From NCBI RefSeq assembly GCF_044647545.1, contig NZ_CP172818.1: DNA of 64,000 nt. The stretch is one strand, 5' to 3'. Shown piece by piece: positions 52,875 to 53,000 of the stretch (its first letter is position 1; the number at the start of each line of letters is the position of its first letter). A program made the position numbers and the translations under genes. The notes beneath the pieces are model-generated. The model saw only the letters and a program-made list of their open reading frames with translations. It was not told where the DNA came from and did no database searches. Source of the DNA: Escherichia coli. GTDB taxonomy: Bacteria; Pseudomonadota; Gammaproteobacteria; Enterobacterales; Enterobacteriaceae.

Positions 52875-53000
52875 TATACTCGTCATACTTCAAGTTGCAT
52901 GTGCTGCGTCTGCGTTCGCTCACCCCAGTCACTTACTTATGTAAGCTCCTGGGGATTCACTCGCTTGTCGCCTTCCTGCAACTCGAATTATTTAGAGTAT
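52875..53000. repeat. ERIC (enterobacterial repetitive intergenic consensus) element
   Basis: Contains ATGTAAGCTCCTGGGGATTCAC and CGCTCACCCCAGTCACTTACTT (the two halves of the ERIC core) inside an imperfect palindrome with inverted ends TATACTC...GAGTATA. Confidence 0.85.

Follow-up and report, generated by a model that had tools for sequence, protein, structure and literature searches.

The ERIC, IRU or RU-1 elements of the Enterobacteriaceae have been known since 1990-91 (Sharples and Lloyd 1990; Hulton, Higgins and Sharp 1991; Wilson and Sharp 2006). The features listed for ERIC include terminal inverted repeats with TA ends (PMC2229807, Table 1), and duplication of the TA has been described as its signature (PMC2229807, PMC3184786). 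In Yersinia, according to reviews of the work of De Gregorio et al. 2005, ribosomes prevent formation of the ERIC hairpin, by which an RNase E site within the 3' inverted repeat is unmasked (PMC2229807, PMC3184786, PMC10969869), and the mRNA upstream of a stop-adjacent ERIC is reported to accumulate less than the mRNA downstream of it (PMC2229807, PMC10969869). The REP/BIME elements of E. coli are also intergenic, transcribed, hairpin-forming repeats that are able to affect the stability of the upstream mRNA, but they are GC-rich palindromes of ~35-40 nt with RAYT (REP-associated tyrosine) transposases, show no TA duplication and have no sequence in common with ERIC. The Correia/NEMIS elements of Neisseria are, like ERIC, miniature inverted-repeat elements that duplicate a TA, are co-transcribed and form a hairpin, and their processing by RNase alters mRNA levels (PMC10969869). 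However, their sequence family and their host are unrelated to those of ERIC, their paired inverted repeats are cut by RNase III, and some copies carry promoters or binding sites for IHF (integration host factor).

We analyzed a stretch of 64,000 nt from E. coli (hereafter the window), in which positions 52875-53001 of the plus strand are a full-length ERIC (enterobacterial repetitive intergenic consensus, IRU), a miniature inverted-repeat element that measures 127 nt when the duplicated TA at each end (52875-76 and 53000-01) is counted in. An earlier note on this DNA had placed an imperfect palindrome of ~126 bp with an ERIC core in the ybhI-ybhJ gap at 52875-53000; the palindrome was confirmed, with its right end moved to 53001, and the flanking genes are the two co-oriented genes that had been named. 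That note had made its identification depend on a match to the ERIC consensus, and the 44-nt core aligns exactly, so that the ERIC identity stands. This identity follows from the exact core, the terminal inverted repeats, the hairpin, the alignment to the Rfam family V_AS5 and the alignment with other members of the ERIC family, and the full-length call is based on the core match, the inverted repeat, the fold, a comparison with the empty site of another Escherichia locus (L003) and the alignment with 70 other copies.

The central core is an imperfect palindrome of 44 nt at 52917-52960 that matches GTGAATCCCCAGGAGCTTACATAAGTAAGTGACTGGGGTGAGCG exactly on the minus strand, which is the orientation in which the ERIC consensus is usually written; no match to this core was found in 100 shuffles. 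The core consensus GTGAATCCCCAGGAGCTTACATAAGTAAGTGACTGGGGTGAGCG agrees with the consensus of 71 independent ERIC copies. The left terminal inverted repeat (52877-52899, plus strand) reads UACUCGUCAUACUUCAAGUUGCA in the ybhI mRNA, and the right terminal inverted repeat (52977-52999, plus strand, likewise as read in the mRNA) contains the AU-rich stretch GAAUUAUUUAG at 52985-52995 (plus strand), a candidate RNase E site under the Yersinia model. The terminal arms at 52874-52899 and 52977-53002, of 26 nt each, are 81% complementary. The ends of the element read TATAC...GTATA, with 5'-TA-3' at both ends as is characteristic of ERIC, and in the mRNA the element runs 5'-UAUACUCGUCAUACUUCAAGUUGCA...UGCAACUCGAAUUAUUUAGAGUAUA-3'. 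Its RNA has a folding energy of -44.4 kcal/mol, compared with -24.1 +/- 3.3 kcal/mol for dinucleotide shuffles (z = -6.2), and the hairpin is also an independent long module when folded within a 254-nt context. A helix between the last codons of ybhI and the Shine-Dalgarno/start region of ybhJ, spanning the ERIC in a 226-nt fold, was rejected, since it was lost in the 254-nt fold (probability ~0.01).

The sole Rfam match to the element was V_AS5 (RF02818), which aligned end to end over model positions 1-129 (E = 4e-8). As its 46.9 bits fall short of the gathering score of 96, we rejected filing the element under V_AS5; the family itself appears to have been built on a Vibrio copy of ERIC. All of the ERIC properties that can be tested at the sequence level were found here, namely size (127 bp), core, inverted repeats, TA ends, TA duplication, multicopy occurrence and RNA hairpin. 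In these, and in its intergenic site, the element is like the rest of the ERIC/IRU family and differs from it in nothing of kind; this particular copy is fixed in E. coli and is not strain-variable. In other words, the element is already known in kind, it is almost certainly known as an individual copy, and by itself it is of little significance.

The element lies between ybhI (51440-52873, plus strand), which encodes a DASS-family anion/tricarboxylate transporter of 477 aa, and ybhJ (53056-55317, plus strand), which encodes an aconitase-family hydratase of 753 aa. The ybhI stop codon, TAA at 52871-52873 of the plus strand, ends 1 nt before the ERIC, and the Shine-Dalgarno sequence of ybhJ, GGAG, is located at 53046-53049 of the same strand. 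The gene order pgl, ybhD (minus), ybhH, ybhI, ybhJ, ybhC (minus) is the same as in E. coli K-12, and the ybhI-ybhJ gap of 182 nt equals that of K-12. The K-12 copy lies in the region 803321-803502 of NC_000913.3, where RefSeq carries no repeat feature annotation. In its co-orientation, its abutting position at the stop codon, the same direction of the downstream gene and its AU-rich 3' arm, the copy resembles the stop-adjacent ERICs of Yersinia enterocolitica. For the latter, an effect on mRNA levels and RNase E cleavage was measured in the work of De Gregorio et al. 2005, as reviewed in PMC2229807, PMC3184786 and PMC10969869.

The empty sites of relatives show how the element came to its position. 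The Escherichia locus L003 has a clean empty site, CTGTAAATA and then TCC, as compared with CTGTAAA-TA-[123 nt]-TA-TCC in the window, and the empty alleles in L003 and in E. coli GF4-3 read CTGTAAATATCC, so that the target TA is seen to be duplicated. The ERIC was thus inserted at a TA 1 nt past the ybhI stop codon, with duplication of this TA, and the filled site is longer than the empty one by 125 nt (52877-53001). In another ERIC-free Escherichia locus, L004, the site holds 10 additional bases, TTATTTAAAA, which are similar to the right arm and may be a remnant left by deletion of an ERIC. In the ERIC-free relatives, the ybhI-ybhJ gap is 57-67 nt long. The insertion is old, being fixed in E. 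coli and common to E. albertii and E. whittamii.

For the loci of other species, species-representative genomes were scanned for relatives of YbhI. The scan recovered the locus from several Escherichia species and from other enterobacteria and returned no ybhI locus from Salmonella. The element occurs in E. albertii and E. whittamii and is not found in the two other Escherichia lineages, L003 and L004. It is also absent from ybhI-ybhJ in the loci of Citrobacter, Klebsiella, Edwardsiella and Intestinirhabdus: the spacers of Citrobacter, Edwardsiella and Intestinirhabdus are unrelated and 27-198 nt long, and Klebsiella has ~1.4 kb between ybhI and ybhJ. The 198-nt spacer of Intestinirhabdus alba (L009, 5435-5631) is GC-rich, with several palindromes that have no relation to ERIC, and the inserts that have colonised the ybhI-ybhJ spacer therefore differ from genus to genus.

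Within E. coli, the population sample consisted of 5426 complete genomes. The final 224 nt of ybhI gave some match in 5336 of them, and at least 80% of this segment was kept in 5333. The earlier note had taken the element as a marker of strain-variable insertion sites. This view holds for the ERIC family, as seen at the cusC-cusF and yeiL-psuT loci, but it fails for ybhI-ybhJ, where the contiguous ybhI-ERIC-ybhJ junction was found in 5330 of the 5333 genomes and an empty site in one, GF4-3, so that the site varies between Escherichia species only. The probe for the empty site spans the junction and can seed on the empty site alone; the remaining ~90 genomes are without this part of the locus.

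Two genomes with alterations in ybhI were also observed. In E. coli RM14721 (L053, 2292-3238), an example of the genomes without this part of the locus, an IS1 stands in place of ybhH and most of ybhI, with 55 nt of the ybhI 3' end, the ERIC and an intact ybhJ still in place; the loss of ybhH-ybhI is an IS1-associated deletion. E. coli strain 111 (L052) has an in-frame deletion of 18 nt at the 3' end of ybhI, corresponding to 52846-52863 and located between two TGGAA repeats, by which six codons of the Trp-rich C-terminus are gone and the ERIC is untouched. The same 18-nt deletion appears to be present in H29.

The genome with the empty site, GF4-3, is an ordinary E. coli that is 0.8-2.4% diverged from K-12 over ybhHIJ. 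At 3990-4090 of its locus (L182, NZ_CP053258.1), the empty site is accompanied by three consecutive variants of the type of the divergent Escherichia lineage L003, within the equivalent of 52814-53075 of the window, and the mosaic patch is at most ~260 nt long. The combination of these variants with the empty site indicates that the allele was replaced via a short tract of homologous recombination, by which GF4-3 gained its ERIC-free state.

Other copies of the element were also compared. When the element was aligned over its full length with 70 other distinct copies of ERIC, taken from the metagenome scan that was used for ERIC copies, the mean column identity was 84%. Compensatory changes with both sides altered were seen in 16 of the 26 consensus pairs (for example, the pair 6-125 occurs as CG in 46 copies, as UA in 15 and as AU in 8), a pattern that a need for terminal inverted repeats in transposition would equally yield. 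The stretch GAAUUAUUUAG in the right arm is the most conserved AU-rich stretch of the family, with A112 and A113 invariant and T114 and A116-T119 conserved in at least 90% of the copies. The ybhI-ybhJ copy belongs to a near-identical E. coli subfamily that has TGCTGCGTCTGCGTTCG in the left half and U-A, not C-G, at the pair 6-125. With an ERIC query, megablast gave a median of 6 places per E. coli genome.

The cusC-cusF copy (L168, 9142-9268) is identical to the ybhI-ybhJ copy at 126 of 127 positions; it lies inside the cusCFBA operon, 6 nt past the cusC stop codon and in the same orientation as the ybhI-ybhJ copy. The cusC-cusF copy and the one at yeiL-psuT (L103, 10100-10226) are 98-99% identical to the ybhI-ybhJ copy. 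Among the complete E. coli genomes, the cusC-cusF ERIC was found in ~1887 (~35%) and the yeiL-psuT ERIC in ~293 (~5%), both counts being approximate and resting on an 80% coverage cut-off, and both loci appear to be strain-variable.

We then consider the transcription of the element. Given that the ERIC starts 1 nt past the ybhI stop codon, at least its 5' arm is within the ybhI transcript. A terminator scan found no intrinsic terminator in 52874-53055 and two clear terminators after ybhJ, at 55323-55379, and no site in 52874-53055 satisfied even relaxed sigma-70 criteria for a promoter. Because the ERIC abuts the stop codon and the gap has no canonical terminator and no promoter-like site, the simplest reading of the DNA is that ybhI, the ERIC and ybhJ are co-transcribed, probably in a ybhHIJ mRNA. 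Deletion of ybhD strongly derepresses ybhH, and ybhH and ybhI are named as YbhD targets (PMC9068703); the same paper, including its supplement, gives no expression value for ybhJ. In the literature searched, we found no transcript or stability data over the ybhI-ybhJ junction.

Owing to the orientation of the element, the AU-rich GAAUUAUUUAG falls in its 3' arm in the mRNA. This orientation probably corresponds to the 'B' class of De Gregorio et al. 2005. In metagenomes, we found 69 independent flank contexts of ERIC, in which the elements that abut or overlap a long ORF's stop codon have the ybhI-ybhJ orientation in 14 cases and the other in 5 (a small test, with a binomial p of 0.06), and those with a stop codon 2-150 nt away are divided 20 to 33, which differs from the abutting class (Fisher p = 0.0085). 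This bias near stop codons agrees with that reported for Yersinia. The ybhI-ybhJ ERIC, 1 nt from the stop codon and in the preferred orientation, has the position of a Yersinia-type ERIC.

As part of the ybhI (probably ybhHIJ) mRNA, the ERIC is predicted to form a long imperfect hairpin. If the Yersinia model applies here, ribosomes terminating at the ybhI stop codon would open the base of this hairpin, the AU-rich arm GAAUUAUUUAG would thereby be exposed to RNase E, and stability would then differ between the ybhHI and the ybhJ portion of the mRNA, such that the ERIC would lower the ybhHI message relative to ybhJ. By this analogy, an effect of RNase E or of stability at the ybhI-ybhJ ERIC is quite possible, if short of probable, and the suggestion of the earlier note that the element uncouples ybhJ from ybhHI is plausible. 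As an overall explanation, we consider it highly probable that this is an old ERIC insertion with a co-transcribed hairpin, for which a Yersinia-like effect would be the most likely effect.

The element is identical at 125 of 125 positions in E. albertii (L005), which is the outgroup of all Escherichia loci recovered, and in a further divergent Escherichia (L002). Relative to E. albertii, ybhH and ybhI differ at 284 of 2561 sites and ybhJ at 186 of 2262, with 23.5% of the third codon positions of these flanking genes different, and in every comparison the 200-nt segment with the ERIC was the least diverged or close to the least. The sole difference in the E. whittamii copy (L018) is one three-base change. 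This change (L018, 5434-5564), CTC to TGA at 52946-52948 of the window, turns the core into a perfect palindrome of 14 bp and shifts the ERIC fold from -44.4 to -55.3 kcal/mol; it looks like a single hairpin-templated conversion and not three separate mutations. Purifying selection or short recombination tracts could each produce the near-identity between species, and the mosaic of GF4-3 shows that such tracts do occur at exactly this site. In addition, near-identical copies are present at unrelated loci, as at cusC-cusF, and therefore the conservation is a family-wide property and not evidence of local function. Copy-specific substitutions, which bear on selection versus gene conversion, were absent from the window copy, given the 126/127 identity of the cusC-cusF copy.

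We regard it as unlikely that this copy is a functional RNA under purifying selection that sets the ratio of ybhHI (transporter/isomerase) to ybhJ (hydratase). If this were true, it would account for the fixation of the element in E. coli and its identity in E. albertii, in contrast to other near-identical copies of the same genomes, which come and go, and the clean empty allele of L003 and GF4-3 would then represent a precise excision or the ancestral state, providing a natural ERIC-minus comparison.

The reading that competes best is that the ERIC is a neutral relic of one insertion, co-transcribed without a meaningful effect on ybhHIJ, whose conservation comes from family-wide gene conversion or recombination. 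We hold this to be possible, though doubtful. It is in line with the 96-100% identity of copies at unrelated E. coli loci and with the exchange of alleles at the site by short recombination tracts. The lineages without the ERIC (L003, L004 and GF4-3) keep all of ybhHIJ intact, which argues that the element is dispensable, and variants that weaken the hairpin are tolerated within E. coli: A52878T of K-12 gives a fold of -39.7 kcal/mol, and the common haplotype C52910T + G52963A one of -39.4 kcal/mol. (The two changes of this haplotype were considered as a compensatory pair and rejected, as they are not paired together and jointly weaken the fold.) However, a neutral relic does not sit easily with 0 of 125 differences between lineages that have 15-24% synonymous-type divergence, with fixation in more than 99.9% of E. 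coli as against roughly 35% and 5% at the two other ERIC loci, or with the orientation bias of the family beside stop codons.

Termination and promoter activity are both less likely than an RNase E effect or no measurable effect. For termination, the proposal would be that the ERIC hairpin and the U-rich UCCAUUUAUUAUCUUUC (53002-53018) form a partial terminator or attenuator that ends most ybhHI transcripts before ybhJ. The hairpin is indeed long and stable, 10 of the 17 nt after it are U, and ybhHI has been treated as a unit in the literature with ybhJ named separately (PMC9068703). However, an intrinsic terminator has a GC-rich stem and then a U run, and the ERIC does not have this form, its hairpin base being A-U rich and broken by internal loops. 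Moreover, the scan that was negative between ybhI and ybhJ did detect the two clear terminators after ybhJ, there is no promoter-like site upstream of 53056 for a separate ybhJ transcript, and the 57-67 nt gap of the ERIC-free relatives is likewise without a terminator; the proposal is thus very improbable. That the ERIC supplies a promoter or regulator-binding site driving ybhJ independently of ybhHI is scarcely credible, since the weak -10-like TATTAT at 53008-53013, just downstream of the ERIC, is outside it and is also present in ERIC-free alleles, no site in the gap passes the relaxed sigma-70 criteria, and reviews give ERIC no known DNA motif beyond the terminal inverted repeats (PMC2229807, PMC3184786).

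The locus offers a natural experiment, in which the same operon occurs in an ERIC-bearing form in nearly all E. coli and in an ERIC-free form in GF4-3 and two other Escherichia lineages. The YbhD repressor is known and its deletion turns the operon on, which makes for a straightforward test of the old question of whether ERICs act in E. coli.

A second RNA structure was found in the same gap. It is a GC-rich stem-loop with a perfect stem of 9 bp at 53017-53040 of the plus strand (UCUGCGCAC-6 nt-GUGCGCAGA), located outside the ERIC and 16 nt upstream of the ybhJ AUG, with a folding energy of -17 kcal/mol and followed by AUAUCUGG, without a U run. It is also present in the ERIC-free alleles of L003 and L004, only its loop varies within Escherichia (at 53028), and Citrobacter, Intestinirhabdus and Edwardsiella have hairpins of other sequence at the ybhJ-proximal position. 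This stem-loop may represent either an RNA structure conserved between the two cistrons or a palindrome to which a protein binds. In the ybhH-ybhI spacer, a 9-bp palindrome is located at 51404-51424 (TTCTGTATG-AGT-CATACAGAA), 15 nt upstream of the ybhI start; with the stem-loop at 53017-53040, both intercistronic gaps thus have a hairpin before the ribosome-binding site.

The gap between ybhJ and ybhC was also compared. It is 70 nt long here (55318-55387), with two terminator-like hairpins, and 233 nt long in K-12 (L001, 7029-7261), where a tandem REP/BIME-like array with repeated GCCGGATAAGGCGT and CCGGCACTTATTGTCGGATGCGATGC units occupies it, next to the ERIC gap. Unlike the ERIC gap, the ybhJ-ybhC gap is strain-variable.

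Several observations concern the genes themselves and copies elsewhere. A sub-threshold match to Rfam Ysr283, a Yersinia antisense sRNA, was found at 51905-52156 of the minus strand, antisense to ybhI, where it scores 39 bits and the gathering score is 58 (E = 2.5e-8). Homology of the underlying gene, and not an RNA gene, probably accounts for this match. In Veillonella (L034-L040 and L050), the ybhJ-ybhH-ybhI homologues are clustered in a different order, with amino acid identities of 58%, 38% and 54%, which suggests that ybhH, ybhI and ybhJ are one functional unit that has moved between phyla. The scan of viral contigs gave 7 loci with ERIC-core matches, of which 5, on the IMG/VR contigs L056-L060, are the ybhI-ybhJ locus itself. 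The lambda attachment site is nearby, between ybhC and ybhB, and these 5 matches are probably host flanks taken into prophage calls. Finally, L098 (3622-3873) contains two head-to-tail ERICs with one common TA junction, a tandem insertion of one ERIC into the terminal TA of another.
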